A DNA stretch of 62,689 bases, the filler included, from Dugesia japonica (lineage: Eukaryota), in NCBI GenBank assembly GCA_001938525.1. It is 5 parts of 5 records of this genome, joined end to end, with 100 filler letters (N's around TTAATTAATTAA, not from the genome) between each part and the next. Parts side by side here need not be neighbours in the genome. Positions count along the whole stretch, not along the records: positions 42,900 to 52,008 come from MQRL01471548.1; 4 more parts are not named here. One strand, 5' to 3'. Below, in pieces: positions 24,445 through 62,169 of the stretch. Position 1 is the first letter of the stretch. The number at the start of each line of letters is the position of its first letter. The position numbers and the translations under genes were made by a program. A model generated the notes under the pieces. It was not told the origin of the DNA, did no database searches, and saw only the letters and a list, made by a program, of their open reading frames with translations.

Positions 24445-24507
24445 AATTATTATTATTATTCTTATTCTGATTATTATTATTATTATTACTATTATTATTA
24501 TTATTAC

Positions 24508-24543
<36 letters not shown>
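24445..24543. repeat. (ATT)n microsatellite at the end of an assembly piece
   Basis: Directly visible; explains the poly-Ile tail of ORF 24071-24595. Confidence 0.95.
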
Positions 24544-24643: not shown

Positions 24644-25161
24644 TGTTTATATTCACGTAAACACTCGGTCTACCATCCATTGCATTATATTTAATTATTG
24701 AATCAGTTTCATTCATCGTACATAACTCAGTGCCTAACTCAGTATTGATTGTATATAATTTTTTATACTTTATAATTGCTGCTATTGAATTAAAACTTTC
24801 ATTGGTTGTGAGATTATACAAATTATTATTATTAATATTAGAAATATTATCAANAATAAAATATTCATTATTTATATTATTTACATATTTAGATAAATTT
24901 AAATCAAACATACAATCACATTCAATCTTATTCAAACAATTTTTACTCAGAAGATGACTTTATAATAATAACTCAGCAAAATTGTTGGGTTCTCAAACAA
25001 TCTAATTCAACTAATTAATTGACAATTACAAATATTATTTATTATAATATTTTGTGATCCCTAGTGAATATTATTTACTATCATTTAAAATAAAAGCTTT
25101 TATCAAATTTTTATCAAAGCTTTTATTTTAAATGAATTCTAAAAAAACGATCAATGGTTAC

Positions 25162-25476
25162 CAGTGGTGTAACTACAATTTTCGGCGCCCAAAGCAAAGT
25201 ACAAATTTTCGACCTTCTCCTTAGGTGCAATTTTTTGTATTTTTTTCATGGGAATAATCAAACTAAATTTTATGACTCTGTTTTTATATTAATATTGAAT
25301 TGGAAAAAAATAAAAGCAATTTAAATTTCTCAATAAATCCATTTTAAACTTTTTTTATTTTATAAATTCATAAACAAATTTTTCTTGCCTTGACCGATGC
25401 AAATTTATCAACAACATCATCAAAATTAATTTTATCAACAGTATTTTTCTCAATGCTTAAAAATGTTACGCCACTG
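25162..25476 (-). mobile_element. hAT MITE with perfect 8-bp TSD, retaining a transposase C-terminal remnant
   Basis: TIRs cagtggtgtaac / gttacgccactg; TSD ATGGTTAC at 25154-25161 and 25477-25484; minus strand reads LSIEKNTVDKINFDDVVDKFASVKARK. Confidence 0.9.
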
Positions 25477-26379
25477 ATGGTTACGTCCAAAAATTATCCT
25501 CGCAATAATTGCAATTGTAAATACTATCATTTATTCATAATTTTGTTATTTATTGATTTTTGATTAGTTTTTCCAAGTTATTGATTGTTATTTGATTTTA
25601 ATGATATATGATATGGATTTTGATTTTATATATTGATATTATGATTTGATTTTAATTTTATAATAATATTTTTATTTAAAATTTCTGTGAATTATTTGTT
25701 AATTATTCCCAATTTAAGTTAATTAGTTTGTCCTAAATTGGAGTTAATTAGACTTTGTGATGAATGTGATTTTTATTTTTTGTGAGAATATTTGCTGACA
25801 TTATTACTTTTTACTTTTCAGGTATACTTAGTGATCTTTCATTTCAATTAACCCCTTTAAAATCGGTGCAGTAGCCAATAAGGTGAAAACCCTAAGGTTT
25901 GACCGAGGCGAAACAGTAATAATTTTTTTAGCGCATTAAGTTGTTTGTGACTTAAAAATTATATTGTATTGCAACTGAATAATATTTTTTAAGGCAAATT
26001 TTTATGTATTATTAAATAAATATATTTAAATATAAAAAATTACGAAGTTGACTATTTATAAATTCAACAAAAGCAACGAACCCTTATTAAATTAGGTGCA
26101 GGTTTAATCGCTCCAATCACATATTTTAAGTAAAATATGATTACACTATTGTAATTTTCCTTTACAACTGACATTAGAGGTTCTTGTCTTTTTGCGTATT
26201 TAGCAATAATCCTTTGCTCAAATATTACTCCGACTTTTATAAGGATACCGTTAAAAATTGTCCTGGCATATTATAAGTATTTGTAAAGCCAAATATTATA
26301 TAATAAATTTAAACATGTGACATTTGTTTAAGTCTTTGCTGTTTAAATCTTTATTTATTAAATAATATATAAAATCAAA

Positions 26380-31929: not shown

Positions 31930-32120
31930 GTCAATCAAATTCCTTCTTTAAATTTGTAAAACGCGTTAGAAATTTGGTATTAGCAAGTTACCGTATTGAC
32001 TACTCCATAGATCAGCATGGAAAAGCCCTCAGTGACGGAGAATTTATCAAAGAGAACTTTTTCAGATAAGCAACAGCTCTATTTTATGATATTAAAAATA
32101 AAGATGATATTATTAAAATA
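31930..32120 (+). mobile_element. SPIN-like hAT transposase fragment
   Basis: ASYRIDYSIDQHGKALSDGEFIKENF..KNKDDII, homologous to the 4803-5155 ORFs. Confidence 0.6.
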
Positions 32121-33225
32121 ATGAAGAAGACAAAGTCAAAATATAGAATTATTATCAAAAACAAAAATAACAAATTTTGATCGAAGCTTCTATTTCAATG
32201 AATTTTAAAATTAAAGCTGCAATCAAATTTATTTTTCGTTTTTTTTGTTTTTTTTCATTAAAATATTAATAAAAACGTAAGATAAAATTTTTACAAATCG
32301 ATCAACCCAAAAATTTATAATCATACAAAATAAATTATTTAGGCAAAGTTATTTTTATTTCTATTATTCATTTAGTATTAAAATAATTATATTAAAGGAG
32401 AAATTACTGTTTTATAACTATTTGTTAATTATTAATTCATTAAATTAACAATAAAATTTTAATATTTCTTAATGTTTATAATTATCGTATTTTAAGGTCT
32501 GACAAACATTTTCAACAAACCAAACTTGTATTCATTAATATATGTAAAATACTAAGTTAAAATTATTAAAATTTCTCATTTATGTTTGATAATTTAGAAA
32601 AGATTTGCTTTTCTTGATTCTAGACACGATTAAATCTGATTTCTTTGATATTAGATTTTATTTATTAGCGTTTTCTTAATTAAATGTATTTATAAACTTC
32701 GTTTCTTTTATTTAGTTAATTTAATTATTTTTTCTTTATTTATTTATCTTTATTAATTTTTGCTACTAAATTTTCTAAGTAACTTAATTGTTTCTATATT
32801 ATTGTTGGGGTCATGGGTGATATGGCTCAAAAAATATATCACGCACAACCCTCAAACTGGGATTTAAANNNNNNNNNNNNNNNNNNNNNNNNNNNNNNNN
32901 NNNNNNNNNNNNTTAATTAATTAANNNNNNNNNNNNNNNNNNNNNNNNNNNNNNNNNNNNNNNNNNNNACAACTCAAGTGTTAATTTTTATGGAAACGAA
33001 TAACAAAATAAAAGATTCTGAGGAAACTACTTACAGTAATCACTTGTATTTATCTTATCAAACATGTTTTGTAATAGTGAAATAAATGATGTCTAAAAAT
33101 ATTAGTTGTGATTTGGAATTATTTGATTGAACTAATTGTTGTTATTTATGTTAAGCCTTTTTCTAAAATATTCAGGTAAAATTTTCTGATATTTCTAAGA
33201 ATATGTTCTTTCATATATCTGTAGA

Positions 33226-34278: not shown

Positions 34279-37200
34279 TTTGCAAAAAGTTGAGACTTAG
34301 CTTCCATCATATCCCCTCTATCAGTATCTTCTGGTTGCAAAGGTAATCCCTCTAATAAAGCAGCCACAGCAGTCATACAAGCTTGGTCGAGATCTCTGGC
34401 TCCATTGTTAATTAAATGATGCTCTGAAAGATTCATGTGATGACTGCTGCCCATAACCCAATCACATAAGTAGTCAACCAATTTATTACGAAACCTCATT
34501 TCCTAATGAAAATTTAATATATTTTATGTTTTATAATATTTATATATAAAATTTTGTAATCTTAAATTCATATCTATATTAAGATGAATACGAATAAATG
34601 TTCATTTTGCAGGAAATGATAGATCTTTGTTGTAACTTATGGGAAAAGAGTATTAGTGATCATATTAAAATTGATTAAGTTTACCTTGTGTGAATTGATG
34701 ACCTTTGTAATGGATAATGTTTCGTTTTTGTTTAACAATACATAGTATAAACAGGTAGATAATATGTTAAAATGAAGTTTTATTTTAAATGGCGTTATTA
34801 GAAGTATCTAATATACTTTTTTACTAATATAAATATTCTGAATAATTTTTAAAAATATTTCAAAAATAATTTTAATATAATACAATATAATATGTACCAA
34901 ATTATTTAAATTAAATTAAAACATTTTCTGAGATATGTATCATCTATGAATTACTTTTACATATTATATGTAAATGATGTGGTTAGATGAGCTTGTGGCA
35001 CTCATCGAAGATTTTAGAAAACAACCGTCTTTCCCGATTAGTTTTCGCGCGCAAATTAATCGAATAATATGTGCACTGTGCAAACAAATCAAATAATCTG
35101 TGCTCGCAAATTATTCAAATTTTCAATGGAAACTTTTTTTAAATTTTCTTAAATAATTTGTAATACAAAGAAAATAAAGACTTATATTATACAACTTTCA
35201 TCAAATATTAAATATTTTGGAAGAAAAAGGGAAATATGTTATTGAATATTAATAATAAAATAATATGNNNNNNNNNNNNNNNNNNNNNNNNNNNNNNNNN
35301 NNNNNNNNNNNNNNNNNNNNNNNNNNNNNNNNNNNNNNNNNNNNNNNNNNNNNNNNNNNNNNNNNNNNNNNNNNNNNNNNNNNNNNNNNNNNNNNNNNNN
35401 NNNNNNNNNNNNNNNNNNNNNNNNNNNNNNNNNNNNNNNNNNNNNNNNNNNNNNNNNNNNNNNNNNNNNNNNNNNNNNNNNNNNATTGAGATCCTGCTTT
35501 TCTGACCATGTCGATATCAATAAATGGAAGAATCAATTTGAAGATCAAACAAATTAAAATGAGAATTGTTTTGATACGAATAGATATGTTTGGAAAGTGT
35601 GCACTGAGTGAATTATTATGGAAGACAATTTAAGAGACATTAAAAATCCATCAAAAATTGATAATTGGAAAGGCACATTAGTTGAAGAATTCTTAAATTA
35701 TTTGATAAGATCTGATTTGTTAAAAAACATTGCTGGACGACGATGAGAAACAACCAATTTTGGCTGAAAAATGACTGAGATCAGAATGTAGTTGTATGTT
35801 TTAGCAAAAATATTGTAAGTTAATATCGACTTAATTGTTCTCGATGGAGTGGAAAAATTTTGTTTGATTGTGGAAGTCACAGCAATGATGATAGTTTATC
35901 TTTAAACTTTTGATGGTCTGTTTCCTTACAGAGATAATTGCAAATTTATTTTTAAATGTGAAAATTAATTTTTTTCAAGAATCATGTGATTTTAAGAAAG
36001 ACAAAAACTTTTTTGAATATGTACAGTGTTTATGCGCACAAATTATTCGAATAATTATACCAAACTTTTTATTTATAAGAAAATTGGCTCTAACAGAAAT
36101 ATTTGCGTGCGTAAACTAATCGGGGAACAATAAAACAGAAATAAAATTAAAATAACAATATAATTTTGTTTTTTAAACAAATTTAAAAATTCATACTTGA
36201 AACTATTAAAAATCATTTATTAATTTATTATAAAAATTTATTTAAAATATTTTACAATTGCAATTATTGCGAGAATAATTGTTGTACGTAACCATTGATC
36301 GTTTTTTATAATTCATTTAAAATAATCGTAAAATTTTACAGTATAATAAACAGACATTATTTAAACATCAAAATATTTAATAATTAAAATTTATTCATTT
36401 GTCTTTTAAAACTGTTTAATTTCAAAGACTTATTAATAAATTAAAAAAAGTAATTTCAATGATAAATAATTTTTAACTTATACAATAATAGATTTAATAT
36501 TTTTAAGATACATTTTATGATTACAAAAAACAAACTTGTCTAAACGTTAAATCATCTCGTCTTGCCATGACTTTCTGAACGAGTTCACACACTTTGATTT
36601 TTGTTTGAGATGCATGTGGACCTTCTAAGTGACGAACATAACTATAGAAAAATATATTAATAAATCAACGTAAGGAAATGTGGAAATTCTAACCGAACAA
36701 TGTTCAACATTAAATGCTCTATACTAACAGCTCCAAGATGTTCATTAGGTTTATCCAATTTAGCTCCTTTATCAAGGATATTTCGTAAGATGAAAATAAC
36801 GTTGTCAACAAACAATGTATTTGAATCTGTAACCTGAACCTGTTGTTGACAGCCTTGACCGGAAAATCTGCGATCCATGTGAACTCTTAACTGTTCAAAT
36901 AGAACGGGGTAAATAACTGGATTCAATTCGTATCCCATGGCTTCTTTTACATATTTCTGAATTTGATGCCCAAACTTCTCGTTATTATTCGTCAGCAAAT
37001 TGAGAAGTTTACCAATAAATCTAAAAAATTGAAATAATAAATACATAATAAAATTAATTTTAGATCAAGCATAGTAAAAATATACAAAACATGCAGTTAA
37101 TATCAAGCCTAAGAAAAGCAAGCATTAAATAACTTAAGTCATTGAAGGAGCCTAATAGCATCACCATCAGCCTCACTAAAAATCTTCGTCGTTTAATCAC

Positions 37201-41950: not shown

Positions 41951-42799
41951 GGCCAATTCTACTAAATCATTTCGACTAATACTCAATTCAACTAACACAT
42001 TTTGACTATTACTCCATTCAACTATTACTTTATTCGACTAAACATAATTTAACTACATTATTAATAATATTTCTAATATTACTCATTTACTAATATTCTT
42101 TTAATTGTTTTAAACCGGCTGTTTTAAGTAAGTTTTATTNNNNNNNNNNNNNNNNNNNNAAGTTATTTTAAGTATTTGATAATGGAATACGAAATTTTAA
42201 AAACTGAAAAGGGCAAAGAAAGCATATTGTCAAACGGATAAATTTCATTAAAATAAAATAAAGCTTCGATCAAAAGTAGCAAAAGTAGAAGCAAGTAAAA
42301 AAATATAACAATTGAGAAACCTATCCAAAACATCTATCATTGGAAATACGCAAGAAATATTAACACAAGCAGTTTCAACAGTTTCTAGTGAGATTAGTTA
42401 TTATATGCCACTGAAACGCTCCGTGCAACGTTATATCAGAAAAATACGCCAAAAAGCAATTATTGACTATATGCCTATTCCGTTAGTTTTACAAGATTTA
42501 ATTATACCGGAAAAATATAAATTTACTGATAAAGGTGACATATTTGTACTTAAGGATACAGGTTTCCAAAATCCAAATACTCCAAATCGCATAATTTTGA
42601 TGGCAACTAATGAAAATGTTAAAACTCTAAGACGCTACGAAGAATATTTTATGGATGGTACATTTAAATCTTGCCCCAAATTATTTGCTCAATTATAGGT
42701 GATTCATGGCTTATATGAAGGTGTTCCGTTACCTTTAATGTATGCACTATTATGCAATAAATCTACTGAAAGCTATAAAAATTTATTCAAGTTATTACA
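41951..42799 (+). mobile_element. Mutator-like (MULE) transposon, left end and transposase fragment
   Basis: YFMDGTFKSCPKLFAQL*VIHG..PLMYALLCNKSTESY. The terminus has tandem (ttc/g)actaa subrepeats at 41951-42090. Confidence 0.85.
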
Positions 42800-44094
42800 N
42801 NNNNNNNNNNNNNNNNNNNNNNNNNNNNNNNNNNNNNNNNNNNTTAATTAATTAANNNNNNNNNNNNNNNNNNNNNNNNNNNNNNNNNNNNNNNNNNNNG
42901 AATTTCTTGGTATTCTATAAAAAAAGTAAATTCTTGTTTTTGAATAAAGTTGTGTTCAAATATTTTTGGAATATTATCAACCATGACATATATTTCGAAA
43001 AATGAAATATCACAATATCCTTGAATTATAAAATATGCTTTTTCTGTTGACCTATTTTAACGAAAATAAAGTTCTAATGGTTTTTCAAGGAAATAATATT
43101 TCATTGAGTTATCATTCTTTTTTGAGATTGGATTAATTATTTTTCCTTTTCTTTTTATTTTAAATGGTGGTATTAAACCATAATAACTTGGTAAATCATT
43201 CTTTACAATAAAAGTGGTTAATAAAAATATTAATACCTTATTATGCTAACCATAACTTTTTAAAATAAGAAATTGTAAATAATTATCAATTATTTCTTTA
43301 ATTTTGTTTAATAAATCTTGTTTAAAAAGTTTTTCTACTGATGATTGTTTTTTTATTTTATCAATGTAATCATTAACTTCTTTAACGCGATCAATATGAA
43401 GATCTTTCTTTATTTTAATAAATTCTTTTTTTAAAGAAATTAAAGGATCATTTAACATTTAATTATTAAAATTTATTTTGTAATTTAATTTTCACAATTT
43501 GGAATTAATTTTATTAAATTTTTCAGAAGAACAATTACTTGTTAGGTTTGTTATTTTTTGTTCAACTTCTACAAGTTTATCATTAATATTTTTATTGGGA
43601 TTATTTGGAGAAAAAATCATTCATTTTATTTATTTATTTTAATAATTAAATCACTTTTAGTTTTAATCCATTGATTATTATTTTTCAAAAGTTGTTGAAT
43701 ATAAATATTTTGATCATTTACTTCTTTTTTAAATCAATAACTTGTTTTTCTAATTTAGTAAAATATTTTAAATTAACTGCATCAAATTCATTTTTAGGAT
43801 CATTAATAATTTTCAAGCAAGTAATTAAATCTCCACTTTCATTGACAAGACTTTATTTTTGATTTGAATTTTGATAATTAAAAATATATTTATTATTTTT
43901 CGAGACTCGTGCGTCTCCAAAATTATTAATTATTTCATTTTTTAGGAATTTTGCGACTTCATCTTTCATTAATATTTCTATATCTAAATTTAAAAAATCA
44001 GCCATAGAATACAAATCAAAATTAGTTATAGTATTTATTTCAAACGTTTTTAGAAAATCTAAAATCATATACGACTTTACGTAGGACATTTTCT

Positions 44095-44744
44095 TATTTG
44101 AACTAATAAAGAAATAGTTTGGCCATTAAAATCTATTGGATTATTATTTTCATCTACAACACTAAATTTTAAAGAATCAATATATTTAGAGTTTAATCTT
44201 GAATAAATTGAAGGGTAAAGTCTTTCTTAAATTTTATAACCAAAACCTACAGTATTTACATGAAAAGAATATATTTGATGGAGTAGCATGTCCGTTGGAA
44301 TTAATATAATTACCTTTAACAAAACTACAAGTTATATTTATCATATTCATATTTAAAATATCATTATTATTTTCAAAATAATATTTTCCTGATAAATTTT
44401 CTTTTGGTGAAAAACCTAAGATTGTATGAACAAAATATTTATCATCAAATTTGATTGTATGTTTTGTTGTTAAATTACATTTTGTTATTGAAAGATCTGG
44501 TGTAACTTCTATTCCATAATCATTTAATTTATTAGATATTTCTTTAATTTCATTATCACCAAGATCAATGGATTTTTGTTCTTTATTAAAAATAAAAGTA
44601 TTATTTTTACGAGTAACATTAAAAATTATATTATAACAACTAAAATACAATAAACCGATTTCATATTCAGAATCTAAATCTATTGGAAATTTTAAATCAA
44701 CTTCTAAATTAGATTCTTGTTCAACAACTAAAAATTGATGAGAA
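44095..44744 (-). pseudogene. Maverick minor capsid (penton-like) protein
   Basis: FPIDLDSEYEIGLLYFSCYNIIFNVTRKNNTF, NMINITCSFVKGNYIN and IDSLKFSVVDEKNNPIDFNGQTISLLVQIRK. Confidence 0.75.
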
Positions 44745-45627
44745 ATTTTATTTAACTAAAATATTTATTTTTATAAACATTATATTTGTCTTGTGAAATT
44801 AATTCTTGGTCTAATAATTCTTGACAAACAGATTTAATTTTTTTGTGTAAATTATTATAACCAGCTTTTACTGCTGAAATTAATAATGTTAATCTTTCAA
44901 GCAAATTTATTATATCACTTTCAGCCTGAGCTTCTAAAAGTCGCGAGTTACTACGAGCTCGCATTCGCTTGCGACTTTCAGAAGCTTCATGATCTTTTTA
45001 ATCTTTACCTTTAATTTCTTTTTCAACAAGACCTCGCGATTGGAAGGAGCTTCTATTTTAAACTTAGGTATTTTTGTGGTTTTTTTCCAGTTAAAAATTT
45101 ACAATAATCAGATCTATGATAAACTGTAATATTAAATTTATTTAAATAAATATCTTTTGCTTCTGGATCATTACTTCCATTTCCTAAAATTAAATTCATT
45201 ACTTTTTCAGAATAAGGAATTAGTTCTTGGTTATTTAAAAAGTATTTCTTTCCATTTTCTTCAAATAAACATATTACTGTTTGTTATCCTTTAAGATTAG
45301 AATAAATTATTCTTTGAAAGCTTTTAGCAGAAATAACTTCTGTATCAAATAAATGTCTAATTATTGGAGATTTTAAAATTCAGTATTTAAAAAAGTACTT
45401 GAAAAAATGGTATTCTATTTTCAAAAGGACTTTTAAATTGTGAATCAAGTTTCCAATCCGGTTTTGTACTTAATTTTTCAATAGCTTTAATAGTAGATTG
45501 TTGTTTCAAAGTTAAAGTATCTTGTAAAGTTTTTTATTCAATTACATTATCACTAAATAAAGTATTAAACTTATCTTAATTCTTTCAAAAGTTATATTCT
45601 TGCAGATATTTCTTCGTTGTTCATTTT

Positions 45628-46156
45628 ATTTAGGACTATGCAAAAGTTTTAAATATAAACCATCACATTTTACTTTAACTTGTATTCCATTTTTATAGTT
45701 TTTACTAATAATCTTTTATTCTGAGTTTGGCAATCGAATTTTAAACTATTTATGAATTGCACTTCTTTGATAAGGTTTTAAATATAATCCTGAACCATTT
45801 TTATTTTCTAAACCTTCTTTTTCCAATTTTTCTATTTGAATTAATTTTTCTTTTTTCTGTAATTCAACTAATTCAGTTTCTTACTGTTTTTTGATTGCAT
45901 CTCTATAATAGCTTACAGTTGAAGCTATTCCAGAAGCTGTTCCAGCAACAGCAGCAGTTGTTATACCAGCTATTATCCCAGGAATTAATCCTAATAAAAG
46001 AAATAATTCACCTTCATGTTCTTTACCTAATTTCTTTTTTTATTTCTTCTTAAACTTTATTACCAATAAAATAGTTTTTACCATTAATTTTTATAGATTT
46101 ACATTTATTTGAATTTACCAAATCAATTAATTCTTGTTCTGATACTGAAGACATTT
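45628..46156 (-). pseudogene. Maverick small virion protein with a hydrophobic Gly/Ala-rich segment
   Basis: EGELFLLLGLIPGIIAGITTAAVAGTASGIASTV followed by GSGLYLKPY and DGLYLK repeats. Confidence 0.6.
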
Positions 46157-47574
46157 TATTTAAAAAAATAATATGACTACTAACTAGATTTTTAAAATGA
46201 CTAACCAATTTGAAAAACTTGATAAACAATATTCACTTATTAAAAGTTATTTATCTAATGATACTTACGCAATTATAATTCTTCAAAAGTGTTTTAAATA
46301 TATTATTTGTAATATTGTTACAAATATTAATGAAAAAGAGCTAATACAAACTAAAGGTGAAGTTGAAACTAAAATTGAAACTGAAAGTTAAGTTAAAGAA
46401 AAGGGTTCAGTCCTAATTGAAAATGTAAAACCTCAAACAAATTATAATCTTACATTTACAGAAGATCCTAACCCGTACCATTGATAGTGAAGAAGAATTT
46501 ACAGTAATTCATGTAAATCCAAAAGTTGAAGAAAAAGTTGTTTCAAGAATTAATCCAAGTTGTATAGCTCGAAATTCAAAATATGATGTTACTTTTTCAG
46601 GTGATGGTGAAATAATTTATAAACTAAGTGTTATTGAATCAGAATCTGAAGTTGAAATTAAACATAAATCAAAAAAATTAAACAAAATGTAATTGAATCT
46701 AAATCAAAACCTAAATTAGAAAAAAAACAAAAACTTGAAAGTGGGGTTGAATCAGAATCTGAAAGTGAAGTTAAGAATGAAGTTGATTCTGAAGTTCATT
46801 TTCAAAAACCAGACCTTTAGTAAAAGGAATTTTTCTAACACGAGAAGAAAACGATGTTATCGAAAGAGTAAAAATTGATAGAAGTGAATTTATTTCAATT
46901 GAAAATGATGATGAAATATTAGAAAAACAAAACAACAAACTAACATTTAAACAAGAATCTTTTAGATCACTTAATTATGAATTAAATCCAGCTAAAGGTT
47001 TGACTGTTTATGAAATGTCAAATGATAGTTATAGTTTATTTGACAAGAAAAGAATTTCATTAGAAATTAATTATTGGAATGATGGGATAAATAAAAGTAA
47101 GCAAATAAGTTTAATTAGTTATTCTAATGTAAGTAAGTTGTTAATTTTATTAAAAAAATTAATTTAATCGGAATAATGATTTCTTGGATTATTTATCAGG
47201 ACAAGAATTTCATTATTCAATAAAATATATACACAAATTAATTAAATTTATTAATTAAGTTGATAAGTTTCCAAAAACAATAACAAGTAAATTTTCCTTT
47301 TAATAAATTCATATACATTTTAAATTAATCGAAAAAACTGTAAATAAATATACTAAAGAAGAACAAATGTAATCCGAAGGTGAATTAGAATAATTGAATA
47401 TTTTAAACTTGTAATTAAAAATCTCAAAAAGTGACGTCCGCGGACGTCAAAAATTAAAAATCTCTAAATTAAAATCCAAAACAATAATTCCTCTCTTTCA
47501 ATTCAACTAAATTCTAATCTTAATACAATTCAATTAAACTCAATTCATCTTTCACCTCAATACCTCATTCGATT

Positions 47575-48327
47575 CACCTCCTCCTCAAAAAAATCTGCCA
47601 TTAAAACATAGGCTTCGCTATCTTAATAATAATAATTATACTTAGTTTTCCAATGAAAATTTACTTGATAATCATATTCCATTTTACTTGAAAATATATT
47701 ACTAAATAAATCATAATAAACATTATCTTTATCTGTTTTATTTAATTTTAAAAATATAAAGCAATTAAAATTAATTTTTATAGAGTTCTTATCCAAGTGA
47801 AAATAAGTTTGAGAAATATAAATTACATTACAATTTACATGTCTTCCTCTAGTAAAATAACTTTTTGAATTTCTTGATATTTTACATTTACAATATCATC
47901 AAAAATTATTAAATTCTTTTTTGCTTAGATAATTTATCACAAAAAATAATTTCATTTGGTTTATTAATTAGAACTACATTAATAGATCTTGGTTTATTTG
48001 ACAAGTACTTTTTTTCTATAAACCATTGAATAATTTGTAATGGAGATATTAAGGAACCAGGAACTAGGTTTTGATGTTCAAAAATAATATCTTTTTTTGT
48101 TAATCCATTTTCAAAACCATGGTAAACCAATTGTGATTCAAATTAATTTATAGTTGTAGAATAAATTATCAAGTGATCATAATCTAAAAACTCTGGAGTT
48201 AATACCATTTTCATTTACAAAAGATTTTTACCTGATCCTGAAGAACCAATTAATAATAATCTAAAATTAAATGGAAAGATTTTATTAATAAATGTTTTTT
48301 ATTTTCATTCCAGATTAACGTAGACAT
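47575..48327 (-). pseudogene. Maverick DNA-packaging ATPase (A32/FtsK-HerA family)
   Basis: FRLLLIGSSGSGK (Walker A), IIFDD (Walker B) and FTRGRHVNCNVIYISQTYF (arginine finger and motif C), with internal stops. Confidence 0.88.
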
Positions 48328-48332
48328 TTTTT

Positions 48333-48612
48333 ATTTCATTGAACTTAGAAAAAGCTTCGATCAAAATAAAATGTATTTGTAAAAAGGTTTATTTATATCG
48401 ATTTTATCGATAAAATTTAAAGAATTGGGTAACAAAGATTTTTTGTATTGAATATATCAAGAAGCCAATATGTTCCTGAAGAAGACTATTGTCGAGAATT
48501 TGAACCTTTTTACAAATACATTATATTTTGATCGAAGCTTTTTCTTAGTTTAATGAAATCTCAAATGCGATCAATGGTTAAGTCCAACAGTTATTCTCAC
48601 AATAATTGTAAT
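48333..48612 (+). mobile_element. Hammerhead-bearing Penelope-pLTR/retrozyme-like insertion with inverted 5' segment
   Basis: 48333-48389 is the reverse complement of 48503-48559. HHR-like gttcCTGAAGAaGACtattGTCGAgAatttgaac at 48472-48505; 3' hairpin tail at ~48585-48610. Confidence 0.65.
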
Positions 48613-49129
48613 ATAAAAGCAGACATTTTTATTTAAAAAAAATTAAAATTTATTATTTTCATAATGGGAAATTAGTATATCATCAAGAGAATGTTCTATT
48701 TTTATTTTTTCTGTACTATCTTTCATTTAAGATTTATTTAGCTTATTTAATACTAAATTTAATATACTTATACTCTATAGATCCATATTAGTAAAATTAA
48801 AAATTTTGAAATAGTTGATGGCTACTTGGATACTTTTTCAAATGGCATATTTTTATATTTATCTCTAACACTATCTACAATTTTCCACCTCCAAAACAAC
48901 TCTGGTGAATTTTCTATGTTTTTCTTTTTTTAAATAAGTCTCTTTGGGCTTGTTTTTTCTTTTTTTTTAATTCTTGTTTTTAATTTTTCTTTATCAGTTT
49001 CAATTAATGGGTCCTCTTTCAAGGCTTCTTTTAAAGTACCTTTTAAAATAAATTGAAAAGAATTATTAACCATTATTATCAATTTATTAAATTAAAATTT
49101 TTAAAACAGTTTTCTGAAGTTCATTACTA

Positions 49130-49600
49130 TAAAATCTACCAAGAATCTTTTCATTTTCTAAATAAGTAATTCCATAAGTGAAATGATTTTGTTTTATAAA
49201 CGTGGGTTACTACAAATATTTCATTTGTACATTTAGCTGTAAAACCTTTTTCAAATTTATATTTAAATTTAAAGATTCTAACTCGATCACCAATTTTAAA
49301 TTTGTTTTTCTTTTATAAAATCCTTTTCGTGATTATGATCTTTGATTATTTCTTTTATTTTATCTGAATTTTCACTAGAATCTTTTGAAGTTTTTCTTAT
49401 ACTAGAATGAAATGTATTATTATATTCATTGATAATTTTATCTATTCCATTTTTGATTTCCAACTAATCTAAAATAGATGATAGAATTGGTTCATGACAT
49501 TTTACTGCTAAAAATAAAGATTTTATTTGGTTTTCATATTTCTCTACAATTTTTTAGAAAAAGAATTGATTAAAAAATCTTTATTTCATCGATCGCTTTT
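49130..49600 (-). pseudogene. Maverick retroviral-like integrase, C-terminal part
   Basis: IINEYNNTFHSSIRKT and NKFKIGDRVRIFKFKYKFEKGFTAKCTNEIFVV. Confidence 0.85.
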
Positions 49601-50027
49601 TATTGGCTGAAATTATGAATTAATAATTATTTCCTTATGTAAATAATAAAGGCCTATGGCTGCTTAAATTCCGCGATGTTAAATTTCCCCAAAACTTTTA
49701 TACGCAAACTTTAAAACATTGTCAAATTAAAAATTAAACATAGATTAACTTGAAGCATATATAAGATTTTTAATATTTCTATAAATAAATTGTTTCTTAC
49801 TCAGCGTTTTACACAATTTACACACATATTATTCAATTTAGTTTGCTAAAGTTTTTTTTACAAGTTATCCATAATAGATAGTGTATTTTGTCAGACAATT
49901 TTGCTATTTTAAACCACCAGCTGCATTTATTAATATTATTGAAATATTTTATTTTCTCTAAATCTGTATTAAAATCTAGACATTCTTTAAATTGAGATCC
50001 TTACAATTCATTAAGTTTTAGATAAAA

Positions 50028-50900
50028 TTAGCTGACAGTACGCAATATTCGTCCAATAGCTTGATTATTCCTTAACCACCTAACCCTGAGACCGCATACA
50101 TGTAATTCTTCGTACAACTGTCTGTCAGTTCTTTCCAAGTTCTGACGTGCTGTTTGACAATAAAATCGAATCTTCTGTTTTTCTTGAGGTATAGAGACTG
50201 CTTGAGAGTAGTTTAAATATCCAATAGCAGCTTTATAAATTCTGAAGAAAAATACCGATTTGATATCAACAAATGTTTCATACGCATCCAAGTTATCCCA
50301 CGGGTGCAAAGAGCTTTTGCTAATCTTTAGAATTGAATTTTCACATTTCTTTTAAATTTTGTCTTCTTATAATTTCAAGATATTTATAAGCATCGTTTTC
50401 ATCATTGTCGATATTGCGGATGCAGGCAACCAAAGAAAAAAATGAAACCAATGAGCAAACTATAACTAAAGATAATAAATATAACGATCTTATGGGAAAA
50501 ACTGTGAATTGAGATGAAGGAGATGAATTAATTAAAATTTGATACCAAACCCATAAAACTGGTACTAAAACCCAGAAAAATAGTTTAATAATAACAAGAA
50601 AAACAGTACTTGATGAGAAACAGTATGAATTGTTCCAGAACTTATACATAGATATTAGGGAAAAAATTCCCGGGTTAGTAATTCTCGAGTAATTGTATTC
50701 TCAAATAGATAAACGAAAAGTTAACATATTTGGAATCAGAGATACTCATTGATTTCTAAAATTCAAGAGTATTGCCAGTTTTCCAGCTACCAAGATGATT
50801 TTAAAACATTCATTTATAACACGACTTAAGGGTTTTAAAAGGTAAGTATGTAAGTAATGAAAAATAACATAATAAAAAGACTGAATTAAAAAACAGGTTC
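50028..50900 (-). mobile_element. Degenerate REL-type non-LTR retrotransposon (R2/NeSL/Utopia/R4-like) RT-thumb fragment
   Basis: ENDAYKYLEI (cf. YKYLG) followed by KISKSSLHPWDNLDAYETFV (cf. LxPWQKxDAxxTF). Confidence 0.55.
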
Positions 50901-53093
50901 ATTATTTGGTTAAGAGTAGATAAACCTGATCATTTGAGTTAGTTTTGTAGCTTTAGATGTGATTCAAATATATCTTAATTTTAACTGTGACTTACGCAAA
51001 AGTTATTTTAGTCATATCATAAACCGTAAAGAGTGATATTGAGAAAAAATCAATAAAAAGAAGTTTAAGCAAACTTTTATTTATTATTTCATTAAAATAA
51101 AGAAAACGCTTCGATCAATGTAAAATGTAATTTTATAGAAATTCGACTTTTAGACATTTTTCTTCTTCAGGAATGATCATTAATAAAATGTGATCAATGG
51201 TTAAGTCCTATAATTACTCTCAAAATAATTGTATTTTCTTTTGTAGTTTATCAATAAAAATTGAATTCAACACTTTCATTTGATAAAGGAAATTCATTTA
51301 TTCCGGAAAGTAATTTACGGTTCCAAAGATTTCAGATTAGACAAGCTTGACTGGAGTTGGAAATAAAATTATTGAATTTTAAAATGGTTTAGAAATTTAC
51401 TTTGTTTCAACTCTTTTATTAAAGAAAAATAATTTTCGTTAATTCAATTTACTAAATAGGCAATTAAATATTTCATTGGTGTTATTATCCCAGTTAAATT
51501 GTAAATTGAAACATTTAAATTTGCTTTTTTCACAGAATTTCTCTGTAGAAAAAATCCTCATGTTTTGTGAAATTGAAAGTGACATATTACAAATGATCTC
51601 CTTGAACCAATTAGATTCAGTGTAAAAAGAAGTATATTTATATAATTATGAACGACATATTGTATTCCATGATTTAAATGGTACAATTCATCTTTTAAAA
51701 ATGTCTGAAAAATTATAATTCATCATCTAAATTAAACTAATAATAATTAGTCATAATAACTAATTTAACAAACTTAATAATAATATTAATAATTATTATT
51801 ATTATATTATTATAATTATTATTATTATATTATTATAATAATTATTATTACATATTAATAATAATAATTATTATTATAAAGTTTTCAAACAGCAAACACT
51901 ACTATTGATTACTTAGAATAATTCATGTAACTTTTGCATATTTAAAGGATTTATGAATATATTAGTTTGTTCGGAAAGTTACTTTGTTTAAATATATTAG
52001 TTGATTTGNNNNNNNNNNNNNNNNNNNNNNNNNNNNNNNNNNNNNNNNNNNNTTAATTAATTAANNNNNNNNNNNNNNNNNNNNNNNNNNNNNNNNNNNN
52101 NNNNNNNNTATTCAGATTTATGTGACGATTATCTTTTATTGTTAGGAATTTTGATTGAAGTTTAAATTCGAAAGCTTTTTTGGTTGATTATTGATGAGTG
52201 TCGAGGATATTATTTGTAATGTTTTTTTCCTATTTGTCCAAATTTAGAAGTTCTTGTAGCTATGGACGCTTTGTGTTCATCGAACCCATCATATTATTAC
52301 TTGTTAAGATTTTGTTTGGTAAGTTATTGTTCAGTTTGTTTTAGAAATCCAACACAAGTATCTGCAGAAATAGTCTGAAAATAGTTTTAAAATAAATAAG
52401 GAAAAATATATTCTGAAGTTAATNNNNNNNNNNNNNNNNNNNNNNNNNNNNNNNNNNNNNNNNNNNNNNNNNNNNNNNNNNATTGTTTAATAAAACTGAT
52501 GGAACACAAAACAAATGGAGATAAAGAGAAAAAGCAATGGAATTTGAAAACTAAGCATAAAATAATTAATAGGTGGACATACATATTGTATAATGAAATC
52601 CTAAATAATATGAACCAAATGAATAATTAAAGATTAGTAAAATTAGTAAATAAAAGATGAGAAAAATCTAACTTAAATATTTTTATAATATACAAAAAAC
52701 AACAAAGAATTAAATTGAATACGAATAATAATTACCTTTCGTTTTTCAAATAATGTAAATTTGGTTTTTTTTGTCTAAATTTACATATTAAAGTATGTGA
52801 TGCATATTTGTATGAACATCCCAAAGTTTAAGGCTTTTTGACATTCGCCTATTTCACCTGGAAATTTTTAGAGCATTTAAACCTGTATTAAAATCGTTAC
52901 TCATATGCATACTAAAATTCAATAAATAATTTGTTAACTTAAGAGCACGAATAAAATAATATTGAATTCATTTACGAGTTCAGTTAATAAATGAACTCAA
53001 TTATGGACTTTTAGTTAAAAAGAATCAATTAATAATTAATTCTACTCAAACAAATCGCCAAATATGATAAGATAAGACAAAAAAATTATCCTC

Positions 53094-53916: not shown

Positions 53917-56256
53917 ATTTATTTTTTTCTGATAAAAAAATAAATTCTTAATAAATTTTGTCTTTTATGATTTTATTTCGAAAATAGTCGTGATTTAAAG
54001 AAATTATATTTTGAAATTATTGTTACATAATTTTTTATTTATTTCTAAGATTAATTAATTAAATTTATTAATGAAAATTAAATAAACCAATTTTTTTTTC
54101 ATTAAATTGATGGCTTTGATCAAATTGTTGTTTTTTGTTTTTTTTCCATTTCTTTTTGGATAACTTTAAAAAAAAGAAATAAAAAAAGCGAAACAATATT
54201 TTGATTGAAGCTATTGATTTAATGAGATCTCATATGAGATCAATAGTTAAGTCCAACAATTATTCTCGCAATAATTGTAAACTTTATTTAAATAATTTTG
54301 TAATTGTTTGTATCTTTTTGTTTAAATTACTGTTCAAATAAATATTGGACTGATGGAATCGGATCACTTTTATTTTTTCTAAAATGTAATTTGCCATGTT
54401 AGATGAGTTTGAATTCACAACNAGCTTCCATAAAAGATTTATTCACAAAACAAAAACTATGAATATAAATTTGTTTTGTTCAAACCAATTTAAAAATTTA
54501 TTTTCGAAACGAAAAATAAAAAATATCACATTACATTAATTAAATTTATTTTAACTTTTTTATAAATAACGTAAAATTTATATTTATATATTTATGAAGA
54601 AGACTATTGTCGAAAATTTGAACTTTTTTACAAATAAATTTTGTTTTGATCGAAGCCTTATCTTATTTTAGTAAAATTAAAAAATACAATAAAAAATATA
54701 TTTTGTTGAAAATAAGAAATTTGATAATTTTTTCCAAATTACAAATATATTATAAAAATTCCAAAATTTTAATATACATTGCGAATTAAAAAATTTTATT
54801 TAACAAATTATAAATTTCAAATTCGATTTGTGTAAACTAAATAAATTTAATAACTCGTTTCCTTTTAACCGATAATTTCAAAATTAATTTTACAAATTAT
54901 TTTAATGATTCAATTTAAATATTTAGCAAATCTGATTTTAATAAATTCCATTTCAAAATACAAAAATATGCTTTTAAAAACTAGTTTTTTTATTATCGAT
55001 TTTCTACATAAATATGAAAAATGTCGAAAAGTCACTGTTTATAACTTTGAACAAATTTGTGTAAACTAAATAAATTTTATAACTTATTTCNTTTTAACGG
55101 TTAATTTAAAAAAAGTTATAAACAGATTTTCATATTTATGTAGGGTTTTAACTTCAATTTTGTTTCTATTATTTATTTATTATTTATATTATTTTATAAA
55201 TCATATATTTTAAATGTAAAATAAAAAACATGTTTCTTCGTTCAGGATTTGTTTTTAATGTTTATTTAAGAAGGAAACATCAATTATAACAAAAATTTAT
55301 AAATAATATATAAAATNTCAAATATTTAAATATATTTGATAAAATTAAAGTATAGAAACGAAATTGAAGTAATAAACCTCACTTTCCGAAATTAGAACAT
55401 CAAAAACACAAGCACATTAAAATTTAACAAAGATTTTATCATTGTAATGAAATATTGATTTATTATAGTGTCATAACTAGTAACACTTACAATTAAACAT
55501 TAATTTAAAAATAATTAAACAAATTTGGACATTACAGTTAATACAGTTAATAAGATCAATAAAATTTATTTAGAAAGACGTCTCGCCACCAATTAGCAAT
55601 TAACGAACCCCAGGTTGGTCAATTCTGTTATAAATAATAAAAAAAAGAAAGCAAAATATCTATATAGCATTTAATCAGCAGGCTTTTTTGGATCTGCTGA
55701 CTGTTCTTCGGGTTACAAAGATTCAATTTTTTGATATATATTGATATTATTATTATTTTAATTAACAATTAACTATATTTATTATTGACAATATTTATTT
55801 TNATCAATATACATAATCTCCATTATATTGTTTGTTTGTGGGGAAATAATGCTTCAGTTAAACAAAATATTAAAAAAAAATAATGAATAGAAAATTGAAG
55901 AGAAAATTATGAATTGAAAATAATTGAAATTAGATTTCTATAAATAAAAGAAACTATTAAATAGATAAAAATTGAGAACATTTTACATAATTTATCTGGA
56001 AGTCAAGACTATAAAGAAATTATTAAAGTGAAATATGACTCAAATTTAAATAGAATATTAATTAAAATTTATCAATTACAAATATTATTTTGAACTGCAC
56101 GAAATTACAGTACTAATTAAAAAGGTTAAACTTAAATTTAATGTAATTTATAATAAGTAAATAAATTAACCAATTAAAATAAAATTAATTCCAAAAATTT
56201 TTTTTTTTAATAATAATAAATTTTAATAATAAAAAATTCAACAAATCAACAAGTTA

Positions 56257-56290
56257 ATTACTGAAGAAGACAAAAGTCGAAAATTGAAAA
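56257..56290 (+). ncRNA. Minimal hammerhead-like motif
   Basis: CTGAAGA-a-GAC(aaaa)GTC-GAAA-att. Confidence 0.5.
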
Positions 56291-56688
56291 TATAAATAAT
56301 AACTAAAAAAAATATTAAAAAATAAAATTTTGGACGAGGTTTATAATTAAATNAAATCAAAATTAAATTTCGAATTTAATAAAATTTGAAATTATATGGA
56401 ATTTAATATTGATCTGGTACAAATATGTAAAAATTGTGAATGTCTGCAACTTTGAGCATTTCAGAAGAAATAAAGCAGGACAAGAAAAAATTCTAAATAC
56501 ATAATTTCCCACGTCTGTATGCAAATTTGTCGGAACACTCAAGTTAATAAGGTTAATTTAATTTTAATTTTTAAAAATTTTCATAGTTTAAATAAAACTT
56601 ATCTATCTATTGATTTATAATCATTTAAAAAGAATTTTGAATTCATAAAATTTAATGTTCTTTCACTACATCAAGCATTAAAAAAGTT

Positions 56689-56725
56689 AATTCCTGATGA
56701 AGACTAAGTCAAAAATTCGTATTAT
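56689..56725 (+). ncRNA. Minimal hammerhead-like motif (G12 mutated)
   Basis: aattc-CTGATGA-a-GAC(taa)GTC-aAAA-at-TC-gtatt, followed by the family motif TTTGATCGAAG. Confidence 0.5.
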
Positions 56726-56929
56726 TATCAATAACAAAAAATAAATTTGATCGAAGTTTATATTTTAATGTGTATATATATAGTTTCCATACATAGGTAA
56801 ATATTTTTAAATTAATCATTTAAACATTCATGGAATGTTAATGATTTATACAATATGCCAAATAATTATATAATTGTTTTAATTTTCCTGAAGTTTAAAA
56901 AGTAAACAATTTTTATGGAAGCCTTTTTA

Positions 56930-58020
56930 GTTAATACTTTATAGTTTATTTACAGTATTCTGAAAGATTTGTTTGAATAAAGAACAATGAATTGAAATAG
57001 TATTGTAGACTGGCTCAGAAAACAGCCAGTGGGTTCCTTCGGAATTTAATAGAAACAGTACGAGCATCACGCACAATACTGTGGTAAAATTTAGAACAAA
57101 ATTCACAAAAATGGAAGTGTTATCGTACTGCCACTGATAATAGCACAACACGTGCAATGATTTCAGCGATAACAAGAAGTATCACGAAAAGTATACGGCG
57201 GTTGTCAGCTGATCAAATATTAATCGCATTTTGACAACAAATAAATGGCATACATACAAATTGCATTTGGCGCAGCATTTGAGTGGAAACGATCAGGATA
57301 GACAAAATGAAATTCTGTGAATGGGTATTGAGCAAAATGAAGGATTATGCAAATTTGGCAAACTGATGAAGCAAATTTTTACATTAATGGAGATTTTAAT
57401 CGACAAAATCTACGTTATAAGAGTAATGCTAACTCTCACTGGATCTATTCGACGAGAATTCAAAGTGCCTCTATAGTGATAGTGTGGTCCGAAATTCGGG
57501 ATAACAGAATTATCGGACCATTTTTTGTTGGTGGAAATCTGAATAGTAACAAGTACCTCACTATGCTGCAAGGAAAGATTTTTCCATCCCTGCTAAATGA
57601 TGATGTCAACTTATAAGTTTACTTTTGGTATGATATAGCTTAAGTTCATTATGGTACGCACATACGACAATGGTTATATACGCAGATTTCAAATGCTTGA
57701 ATAGGTTTGCGTGGTTCTGTGTAATGGCCTCCAAAATCCTCAGATCTCAGTCCATTAGATTTTTATCATTGGTGCTATTTGAAAACCATGTTGTATCAAG
57801 AAAAGATTTGAAACATAAATGATCACATAAACGGATCACCGATGCCATTACAAGCATAACTACAGTTGTACCTACACGTGTTCTTTAGCAGTGGATAATG
57901 CGCATTGAAATATGTTTCCAGAGTAATGGTGACCATGTAGAGCATGTTAAATAAATAAAAGTAGTTTTCCTTTCTTTTTTATATTTATTTTTCATGTGTG
58001 TAAATTTATGAGACATGTAT
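56930..58020 (+). mobile_element. Decayed Tc1/Tc3-like transposon (copy 1)
   Basis: TDEANFYINGDFNRQNLRY, RIIGPFFVGGNLNSNKYLTML and WPPKSSDLSPLDFYHWCYLK. Confidence 0.85.
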
Positions 58021-58156
58021 TTTTTTCAGACAATTATGGAATTTTTAAACCACTGAAATTTCACTTAAAAACCGTCATTTTTAGAAGAGATAACCTAGTT
58101 ATTTTTAAATTTCTTTTAAAAGATACAAATATATCATTATAATTACAAGTAATATA

Positions 58157-59300: not shown

Positions 59301-59404
59301 TAAAAAATTTTGAAAGCAAATTTGAGTTAATTTAAAATGAAAAATTTATAAACCAATAAAATTGTGATAAAATATAAAGAATTTTGTAACAGAGATCTAT
59401 TGTC

Positions 59405-59895
59405 GTATTTCTAGAGTAAATAATTTCTTTTATCCAAGGTGGGACANAGTACCTGGTCAATTTTTATCTTTCGAACTAAGCATATTTTTACAGCAAACCC
59501 TAGACGAAATATGTTCAGAACTTTATTTTGAATCGAATGCTACTATGTAAAAAGTGATATAATAAGTTTTGACTGAGATATTCGTAGATCAAGGTCAAGT
59601 GATTCAGTGCGCTTATGCTTTTATCTAGGAAACTAAAAATATTTCTACAGCAAATCCTATGTATAAAATGTTTAGAATTTTATTCTGAGTTCAAGGATAC
59701 CAAATTTTAAATTGTACAATAAAAATTAACTGAAAAATTTTTCGATCTTCACGTGGAAAAAATTGACCAATCTAACCCGAATTCGAAAATATTTCTTACT
59801 TATTCGTAACGTTTAATAAAAATCCTTCATTTCTGAATCACTTCGTTGGCGGGGGAGATAGGGGGTACTGGTCCAGTGCGCTTATATCTTTCTAC
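59405..59895. repeat. Dispersed non-coding repeat (copy 2 of 8020-8640)
   Basis: Same subrepeats and GC-rich end as copy 1. Confidence 0.7.
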
Positions 59896-59899
59896 TAAC

Positions 59900-60699
59900 T
59901 AAAAATGTTTATGACTGTTGTCAGTAGATCGAGTATTAGTTGCATTTTGACAAGAAACAAATGGCATCCATACAAATTGTATTTGGCGCAGTATATAAAT
60001 GGAAACGATCTGGATAGACGAATTAAATTCTGTGATTGGGTATTGAGCAAAATGAATGATGATAAAAATGTGACAAACAAGACCTTGTTCGCCGATTTAG
60101 GAAATTTTTCATTAATAGAGAGGTTAATCAGCAAAATCTACGTCATTAGAGTAATAATAACACTCACTGGATCTGTTCGATAAGAATGCAAGGTGCCCTT
60201 ATAGTGACAGTATGAGACGAAATACGGAATAACAGAATTATGGGACCATTTTCCGTTGGTGGAAATAGCGACCAGTACCTCAACATGTTGCAAGAAGAGA
60301 TTTTTTCAATCTCTGCTAAACGATGATGGTAACTTCCAAGCTTACTTTCAGCAAAATGGAACTTCCAGATGCTTGGATAGGCCAGCGTGGTTCTGTGTAA
60401 TGGCCTCCTCAATCCCCCCATCTCAACTTATTATATTTTTATCTTTGGGACCATATGAAGGCTTTAGTGTATAAGGAAAAGATTGGAAACATAAATCATC
60501 TCAAAGAACGGATCACTGACGCCATTACAAGCATAAATACAGCTGTGCTTACACGGGCTCTTCAGCAGTGGATAATGCGCATTCAAATCTGTTTCCAGAA
60601 AAATTGTGATCATGTAGAGCAATTATCTAAATAAAAATGTTTTCCTTTCTGTTTTATATTTATTTTTCAAATGTATAGAAACTTATGAGACATCCTGTA
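59900..60699 (+). mobile_element. Decayed Tc1/Tc3-like transposon (copy 2, 5'-truncated)
   Basis: Colinear with 57200-58020 (NKWHPYKL, RIKFCDWVL); right end aacttatgagacatcctgTA. Confidence 0.85.
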
Positions 60700-62169
60700 A
60701 ATATAAATGAGTGTATTTTTTCCCACAATTATGGACTTTATAACTACTAAAATTTCACTTACAAACCATCATTTTGGAATAGTGATACCCTAGTTATTTT
60801 TACATTTCTTTTAAAAGATACAAATATACCATTATAATTGCAAATAATATAATAATGATGACAGATATGTCTGTTTACATTTGTGTTAATAATGTTTGGT
60901 AGATAATTTACAGTGAATAAGACACGAAATATATAATAACCAAAAATATTGAAGTAAATAAATAGTTAAAACAACTGATATTTATAATTTGTTTAATCAT
61001 TTTTAATATTTTATTTAAAATTCCCATTAATACATCAAGAACAAATACAATTTACTAATTATTGTAACAACATTATAAAACAGTAGAGTACAAATGGGTC
61101 CAGCCACAGCACTAAAACATTTCATTAAAAAAATTTCTATCGAGGCTGCTAAAAATAACTAATAGTAAATCTAGATCACAAATAGAAAATAAAACTTTGT
61201 ACAACACTGACACCAAAGATCAGCTTTTACAATTCGTTTAACTTCTAACTTAATTTAATCACAACTGTTAAATAATTCACTAATTTATAAAGATAAAGTC
61301 ATTTGAATATTAATTTATTTTCAACATTAAACAAATTAAAATCAGTTGTAGAAATATTTATAAAATCTCGATTAAATATTTGTAGAAACAAATTAAATAA
61401 TGTAGTAAAAATTTTTCAAATTTCATGAATTCTGAAAACACAAAATAAATGAATGAATTTATTTAAAAGTATATACACAAAAATCTATCCAAATATTGTA
61501 TTTTATTGAAAAATATCCTTTGAAATATTTATACTTCCATAAAGATTCAACCAGTTTATTGGGGATGACATTACCACATTTTCATTATTCTAAATATAAT
61601 TAAACAATAAACAAAATCGAAAATATTTCTGAATTATCAAATAAAAATTACATATANNNNNNNNNNNNNNNNNNNNNNNNNNNNNNNNNNNNNNNNNNNN
61701 NNNNNNNNNNNNNNNNNNNNNNNNNNNNNNNNNNNNNNNNNNNNGTTATAAGTCAGACCTGTGGTTTAATGTAATATTTATTTCCTGGTTCACGGCCACA
61801 ACTAAGTTGCACTTGCCTAAACTAAATATGTACATATTTGAAATAATTTTAATTATTATATTCCTCTCCCCCAATGTTGATACGCGTCTAATATTATTTA
61901 TTGAAATAACTCAGAAAATTTCGATGTATACTGTTATAAAATTCAAATTATATGTCAGCCCTACGATTGGATGTAATAGTTATTTCCCGACCGCAGTCGC
62001 GACTAAGTTGCTCATGTCTGATATAGAGAAATACCATTAAAATTGATGAACTCAAAATTCTTTTTAAATGATTGTAACATGATTATGAAAAGATTAACAT
62101 GTTCAATTTAGTCCAGAGATTCAAATAATAGTCTTTATCAATTTTTGGAGTCACTTAAAATTTTCAGTG

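Follow-up and report, generated by a model that had tools for sequence, protein, structure and literature searches.

The insertion at 48333–48612 of the window (the whole stretch of 62,689 nucleotides of Dugesia japonica DNA that was analysed) raises the question of what kind of element leaves short, dispersed copies with a hammerhead-like motif and a structured 3' tail. The initial annotation described a recurring module of about ten copies, and this is borne out by a profile search and by motif scans, both of which exceed chance. An nhmmer profile seeded with 8 copies and run over the whole window establishes the repeat family as real, with 14 matches at 11 loci (E<1e-4), six of them outside the seed; in the reversed window the best match had E=0.38 and none reached E<1e-4. 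Relative to shuffles of the window, three exact matches were found to CTGAWGAAGACN{3,4}GTCGA (0.00 expected), four to GATCAATGGTTAAGTCC with up to two mismatches (0.00 expected) and nine to TTTGATCGAAGC with up to one mismatch (0.30 expected). The seven ribozyme-like heads and five tails listed at the outset are all present where they had been placed. Altogether the family accounts for 2.3% of called bases of the window, and two more fragments containing only upstream sequence lie at 59366 and 62019.

The head at 48472–48505 (+) corresponds by consensus match, descriptor match and fold to a minimal type I hammerhead, for which a cut site is predicted. The segment parses as GTTC CTGAAGA A GAC TATT GTC GAGA A T T T GAAC. 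Stem I, which the initial annotation did not describe, pairs GTTC with GAAC (48472–75/48502–05); the core CUGAAGA (48476–82) is followed by an extra A and by stem II, GAC/GTC; and the 3' core runs G12-A13-G14-A15.1, mutated at position 14, before an AU/UU palindrome. The predicted cut falls between 48501 and 48502, after U48501. Every position agrees with the published consensus for minimal hammerheads of Penelope-like elements (PLEs), NNN CUGANGAH G...C GAAA N palindrome N U H NNN (PMC4209133), except A14, which is G here, so that the GAAA previously assigned to this copy in fact reads GAGA. The substitution, at 48496, is private to the 48.4k copy: A makes up 99.95% of the depth in the DNA-like contig set X1, and 87% of reads in RNA runs X9 and X12. 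A14 is a core residue in hammerhead biochemistry, and the 48.4k hammerhead is therefore predicted to be dead through A14G.

At the level of the family the motif retains the features of PLE minimal hammerheads, namely the CUGANGA...GAAA core, the extra nucleotide, the palindromic 15.2/16.2 pair and a short helix I. The G10.1-C11.1 pair, the extra A between positions 9 and 10.1, and an A-U pair at 15.1-16.1 are kept in all seven heads, and 15.2-16.2 is paired in six, with one double change. Helix I is GTTC/GAAC at 48.4k and ATTC/GAAT at 51.1k, and 75% of its cells are paired; over all stems the proportion is 86%, versus 19–45% when the alignment is slid. The hammerhead reading of the initial annotation is upheld by stem I, the extra A, G10.1-C11.1, the palindromic A-U at 15.2/16.2 and U-H, and its link to Penelope-like pseudo-LTRs (pLTRs) by the match to the published consensus. 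A descriptor allowing at most one core mismatch returned two matches versus 0.075 expected per window. By this descriptor the core is perfect in only one of the seven heads, at 11.1k, and there an N gap hides stem I. In the 56.2k head H17 is absent or G.

Covariation across the seven heads is thin: stem I and the 15.2/16.2 pair each show a single double change, and 20 of 500 shuffles reach the observed score. Stem II had been described as kept while its loop varies; it is kept in six of seven heads, yet never covaries. Among the variant rows listed, minority letters fall at 0 of 34 positions in the hammerhead and at 13 of 110 in the element sequence on either side of it (p=0.025), a comparison in which the 80% likeness filter favours conserved parts. 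The MFE fold of 48460–48515 consists of exactly stems I and II, and its stability does not exceed that of shuffles (z −0.04). For the dimer of the 48.4k copy, folding energy lends no support, since the cofold minimum lies at −12.6 kcal/mol and the hammerhead conformation reaches −5.2. The proposed pairing of TTGATCG with CGATCAA appears in the MFE fold of one of the four copies folded, and such long-range pairing is not conserved. An Rfam search of the window did not find a hammerhead, returning one chance match (MIR837, E 2.2).

Published PLE minimal hammerheads share with the planarian family the CUGANGAH core, a G-C pair closing stem II, GAAA, the palindromic 15.2/16.2 and U-H, together with a short stem I and a mostly single, dispersed occurrence (PMC4209133). 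They differ in that most of those listed have a stem II of 4–8 bp, compared with 3 bp here; a Caenorhabditis briggsae example in the published alignment also has 3 bp and an oyster one has the same A-U-U-U-GA junction (PMC4209133). The hammerhead given in that source for a Schmidtea mediterranea PLE has another sequence, a 5-bp stem II and a U-A-U-A junction.

Within the insertion, a direct copy, defined by profile match and contig depth, extends over 48409–48620 (+) and comprises a pLTR and a tail; depth jumps 138-fold at 48408 and drops 1270-fold beyond 48615. Preceding it is an inverted, 5'-truncated, tail-less copy at 48333–48389 (−), absent from the initial annotation, which is equivalent to 48503–48559 and stops just past the ATG. 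The arms 48325–48389 and 48503–48567 form an inverted repeat of 65 nt at 91% identity. The junction between the copies (48390–48416) includes a perfect 16-nt palindrome at 48401–48416, the null probability of at least 16 nt within 33 nt being 0.004. Within the direct copy, downstream of the hammerhead, are the conserved TTTGATCGAAGC motif (48527–48538, +) and an ATG opening a 20-codon frame (48553–48612, +), which makes up the optional tail and is likely the N-terminus of an ORF. The tail contains a terminal 9-bp hairpin (48587–48609, +) adjoining the tail-bearing 3' end. The whole is flanked by a target-site duplication (TSD), AGACATTTTTTATTT, at 48322–48336 (+) on the left and 48621–48634 (+) on the right, exact over 10 nt and 14–15 nt long if one slip in a T-run is allowed. 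The last 4 nt of the left AGACATTTTTTATTT also complement the AAAT that follows the ATG of the element.

A similar head-to-head arrangement is found at 5 of the 11 loci (11.1k, 25.1k, 48.3k, 51.1k and 54.1k), with arms of 22–94 nt. At 25076–25533 (+) the insertion has 27-nt arms, a tail and a 12-nt TSD, and is split by a nested hAT-like element at 25162–25476; the tail that had been annotated at 25148–25520 is a single one, interrupted by these 315 bp. The head (−) and tail (+) listed separately at 51.1k and 51.2k both exist, as parts of a single head-to-head insertion (51080–51233) that joins a tail-less copy with a degraded head (−) to a short tail copy (+) through a 10-nt junction palindrome. 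The insertion at 54099–54283 (+) has 58-nt arms (72%) and a tail, and the subfamily A head with the perfect core (11078–11193, −) carries a 22-nt fold-back at its 5' end, its 3' part lying in the N gap. Both ends are visible in four of the inversions; in these the inverted arm terminates no more than a few bases past the ATG, and the tail is found only on the direct arm. Junction palindromes occur at two of the five junctions, of 16 nt (48401) and 10 nt (51172), with null probabilities of 0.004 and 0.07.

Inverted arms with a terminal hairpin, in a genome rich in DNA transposons, could conceivably be the termini of a MITE or Helentron-type short element with a chance resemblance to a hammerhead. 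The arms, however, vary in length, their junctions shift and over half of the loci lack an arm altogether; the TSDs are unlike one another in length (10–15 and 12 nt) and sequence; and the excess of descriptor matches over expectation speaks against a chance look-alike. The variable arms already largely refute this reading, to which we give next to no chance.

The remaining copies are without head-to-head structure. Subfamily A contributes a tail-less head at 54586–54675 (+) and a fragment of its upstream part at 59366–59403 (+). Subfamily B is represented by a tail-less head at 32112–32265 (+) followed by an inverted piece in tail-to-tail orientation (32.2k) and with a weak 9-nt TSD, a 5'-truncated copy with tail (36252–36326, −), a degraded head (56238–56357, +) and a tail-less copy (56615–56770, +) in which the head is preceded by about 80 nt that are likely the 3' end of an ORF. 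A short tail-less copy lies at 42241–42275 (−). Loose read ends at 48470 and 48545 point to more subfamilies, differing upstream of stem I and in an A-rich spacer after the head, which resemble the 54.1k and 32.2k pieces.

The 5' ends of copies are ragged and the 3' ends fixed, falling into two classes, either at the ATG or about 55–60 nt later, after the hairpin; eight in the window are tail-less and five tail-bearing. Loose 3' ends pile up at 48612 (383 contigs, and 363 RNA reads in X9), and the sequence continuing beyond them is heterogeneous (agreement 0.52–0.57). The hairpin forms in four of five copies, in agreement with the structured 3' tail originally proposed. All five tails are free of stops from the ATG while other frames are broken in most, in a setting where 22% of 60-nt segments have a stop-free frame by chance and the tail copies are not independent; variable columns are distributed 4/8/9 over the codon positions, with no clear coding signal. 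Of the five loci tested for TSDs, two have clear ones, of 10 nt (exact) at 48.3k and of 12 nt at 25.1k, and the remaining three gave 9, 8 and 7 nt. Null probabilities were 0.003 for at least 10 nt and 0 of 1,500 for at least 12 nt, for a null window narrower than the search window. At both clear loci the end of the TSD complements bases around the ATG.

This layout is the known Penelope-like structure of pseudo-LTR, inverted copy and optional tail. From the dispersed copies, ragged 5' ends, two fixed 3' ends, tail-less inverted arms and TSDs at two loci, we consider it likely that the repeats are heavily 5'-truncated insertions of an autonomous PLE, reduced to a pLTR with its minimal hammerhead. 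We infer that target-primed reverse transcription of the PLE kind, begun at either of two internal sites, produced them. By analogy with the Anolis Poseidon element PAc, the RT/GIY-YIG protein of the element would bind its RNA at the start of the ORF and nick AT-rich DNA. Reverse transcription would start internally at either of two sites, the hairpin end or the ATG, giving tail-bearing and tail-less ends, and one cDNA from each site, joined head-to-head, would produce the inverted structure. cDNA synthesis would usually abort within 200 nt. The hammerhead would cut, after U48501, only as a dimer or with help from protein, and would ride as a passenger. Against descent from an autonomous PLE stand the missing RT and intact ORF, TSDs that are clear at two of five loci, thin covariation and a tail longer than usual.

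Inversion and tail are general marks of PLEs (PMC8557442, PMC8969392), and structural parallels come from two systems. In the rotifer Adineta vaga, Pen2a combines a direct pLTR with an inverted pLTR that is shorter by the tail; pLTR and tail together hold the first 22 codons, TSDs are 8–10 bp (9 bp in Pen2a) and junctions carry palindromes (PMC3846280). Pen2a and Pen3a thus share with the planarian family the head-to-head inverted pLTR, the optional tail extending the start of the ORF, TSDs, junction palindromes and solo pLTRs (PMC3846280). The rotifer tail measures 31 nt compared with about 55–60 nt here, where 30–40 nt is usual for PLEs; the planarian window moreover holds no full-length ORF, and the copy number is orders of magnitude higher than in A. 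vaga (PMC3846280). In PAc, two starts of reverse transcription delimit the tail, the distal one lying in a stem-loop within the ORF start; its targets are AT-rich, and its hammerhead, which cuts only with protein, is dispensable for insertion in vitro (PMC11167929). Both families have a tail delimited by two 3' ends, of which the distal one falls at a stem-loop in the ORF start, as well as AT-rich targets and a hammerhead in the pLTR. The PAc ORF begins inside the hammerhead, with the stem-loop 111–118 nt into it (PMC11167929), whereas in the planarian family 51 nt separate the predicted cut from the ATG, and the hairpin is 35–57 nt into the frame.

A motif-level candidate for a link to an ORF was found upstream of subfamily B. 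The segment 56615–56673, upstream of the 56.7k head, matches 62019–62077 (−) at 86%, and in one of the six frames four of nine changed codons are synonymous, compared with 0–2 in the other frames; taken alone, the excess has p=0.05 for that one frame. Further upstream in the same frame, the 62k copy shows K-I-L, N, R and E-S spaced as in the C-terminal half of PLE GIY-YIG domains (compared with Fig. S2 of PMC8557442), one residue short between N and E. Such a motif occurs once in the six frames of the window, at 62164 (−), versus 0.105 expected per shuffled window for a pattern drawn after the candidate had been seen. The fragment at 62019–62164 (−), whose 3' 59 nt match 56615–56673, resembles by motif a decayed GIY-YIG C-terminal half, and would link subfamily B upstream to such a terminus. 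The likely ORF frame of the 56.7k copy enters the hammerhead and stops at the loop-II TAA (56705–56707), a feature not seen in the 56.2k and 32.1k copies.

Other searches for coding sequence returned no relative. Pfam matches to RT or GIY-YIG were found in none of the 112 frames of at least 62 aa (all 112 searched), of 147 of the 245 frames of 44–61 aa, or of 32 read-through frames. Neither the window nor the homology searches yielded an intact RT ORF. An alignment of the tail peptide gave 464 candidates with none at E<=10, a profile search of 1.84 billion proteins gave two matches, both to unrelated multi-stretch proteins, and the best score of an Atlas search (0.84) was at noise level. The GIY-YIG-like remnant gave 384 candidates and no relative, PHROGs one weak, unrelated match in 31 frames, and exact-pattern scans of metagenome, viral and prokaryote collections nothing. 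A putative sign of attachment to a PLE ORF is the GIY-YIG-like remnant linked to the 56.7k head, with no RT.

The initial annotation favoured a non-autonomous family without cognate ORF, which was not established. In its most specific form, this reading holds that a master RNA of about 210 nt, with a fixed 5' end near 48409, keeps the pLTR, the hammerhead and a tail that binds the RT, and that a PLE protein copies this RNA in trans in a SINE-like manner; the enzymology would be the same and only the master would differ. Short copies are in great excess and the ORF was not found, the copies at 48409 and 59366 begin at the same base, and depth is already 151,000 at 48408–48423 after the 138-fold step. 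Non-autonomous PLEs are also known, such as Chlamys MRC1 (PMC8557442). The depth drop at 48408, however, coincides with the fold-back junction of the 48.3k copy itself and for this reason cannot show a 5' end of the family; subfamily B continues upstream into coding-like sequence, and other copies have ragged 5' ends. In view of the open tail frame, the GIY-YIG-like remnant and the published description of dispersed single minimal hammerheads as truncated PLEs (PMC4209133), the reading is the weaker one, and we judge a dedicated short master unlikely, though credible.

Short, ribozyme-bearing and PLE-related elements are also known as non-LTR retrozymes, which reach more than 100,000 copies in axolotl but are defined by tandem units and circular RNA (PMC7229834; bioRxiv 10.64898/2026.07.22.740005), neither of which is seen for the planarian window. 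Under such a reading, the hammerheads of tandem units of 150–450 nt would release monomers that circularise. Two subfamily B heads with damaged cores, at 56261 and 56694, do share an orientation at a spacing of 433 nt, and may represent either a partial tandem or separate insertions. Only 78 of their 102 aligned bases agree, however, and the spacer does not recur as a unit. Among the X1 joints listed, two with inserted letters, each from a single contig, return inside the element. No tandem array of the element was found in the window, where the retrozyme analogy accordingly fails; retrozymes have canonical hammerheads with loop-loop contacts (PMC7229834), and inversions, tails and TSDs are marks of PLEs. 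We regard a retrozyme origin as highly improbable. No planarian species was found among the retrozyme hosts in the accessible portions of PMC7229834 and bioRxiv 10.64898/2026.07.22.740005.

RNA from the family is present at 105, 8 and 3 reads per million records in runs X9, X12 and X8, in both orientations, and 91–100% of these reads run on into unlike flanks. No pile of read starts or ends was seen in the three runs at the cut site or elsewhere, nor, among the back-joints listed, one spanning a unit (two of the three libraries being oligo-dT). The depth profile likewise shows no step at 48503, one base past the predicted cut. These data fit copies carried inside host transcripts and show neither cleavage nor circles; the lack of such a pile-up is also reported for PAc (PMC11167929).

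The abundance of the family can be given as a rough order only. At 80% likeness to 48392–48850, 12,631 X1 contigs contribute, and depth climbs from 5' to 3' over the element; summed depth over its centre is 0.75–2.25 million, which is no copy number, with the listed single contigs on the element at depths of 7–25. Extrapolating 12 loci per 61.6 kb, from a window picked for containing copies, to the 1.52-Gb genome (PMC6114478) gives ~300,000 copies. A copy number of ~10^4–10^5 or more is suggested, apparently far above the 2,000–9,000 of schistosome, coelacanth and frog PLE hammerheads (PMC4209133). The kind of element is already known, and the family is notable mainly for this number.

The inverted arm of the 48.3k insertion begins at 48503, one base beyond the predicted cut, in a single case. 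Starting 1 nt from that position, it looks as if the 3' cleavage product had served as template. On the boldest interpretation, the 1.5-Gb planarian genome contains hammerhead-bearing PLE ends of the order of 10^5, a ribozyme load on the axolotl scale, and the 5' breakpoints of these ends preserve a trace of ribozyme action in vivo; we hold this combination to be a long shot. If it were true, a genome-wide peak of arm starts at the cut base would provide the first footprint, in a genome, of PLE hammerheads cleaving while the element transposes. What these hammerheads do has been termed unclear (PMC8557442), and an abundant family whose copies show junctions, TSDs and two discrete 3' ends offers a test bed in a model animal amenable to RNAi: it would allow statistical tests of RT start sites, of the formation of inversions and of cleaved RNA as template.

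No paper on the planarian family was found in the literature, Repbase and Dfam lying outside the search, and no mention of Penelope in the accessible portions of PMC6114478 and PMC11410931. Four Schmidtea Perere entries are listed in PMC6515669; since Schmidtea PLE entries (Perere_Smed, PNL2_SM) exist, a catalogued relative is possible. Unclassified repeats constitute 22.7% of the D. japonica genome (PMC6114478), and the family puts a name on part of them.

The window is AT-rich (GC 18–32%, with 1,059 N), and mariner, hAT-like and other decayed elements occupy much of it. Host genes include a Wnt gene at 631–1433 (two exons with a short intron), of which the exon at 966–1433 is 99% identical to D. 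japonica Wnt and 89% to Schmidtea, and a CYFIP/FragX_IP gene at 23065–24541, within an intron of which the 25.1k insertion may sit. The 315-bp hAT-like element at 25162–25476 has 12-nt imperfect TIRs starting CAGTGG and an 8-bp TSD, ATGGTTAC, and is younger than the copy in whose tail it is nested. A second dispersed repeat (14351–14422 and 54426–54499, 80%) has a TTTTATGGAAGC-like motif resembling TTTGATCGAAGC and is possibly another PLE subfamily. An apparent homology downstream of the tail (36149–36257 versus 54454–54565, E 1e-9) was rejected, the reversed control reaching 1e-11. Further repeat pairs lie at 8027–8524 and 59405–59794, with an internal 157-nt duplication and with the 59.4k copy adjoining the fragment at 59366–59403, and at 57187–58156 and 59903–60851, a 1-kb pair sharing 75% identity, in which Tc1-like transposase motifs can be made out by eye but Pfam gave no match. 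The 48.3k insertion is itself enclosed by a decayed Polinton/Maverick-like stretch at ~43000–51000 (−), with a weak, below-cutoff Pox_A32 match at 47626–47895 (E 0.0019), and by eye we also recognise in it a Walker A-like motif around 48250 as well as pieces resembling an integrase and a capsid protein.
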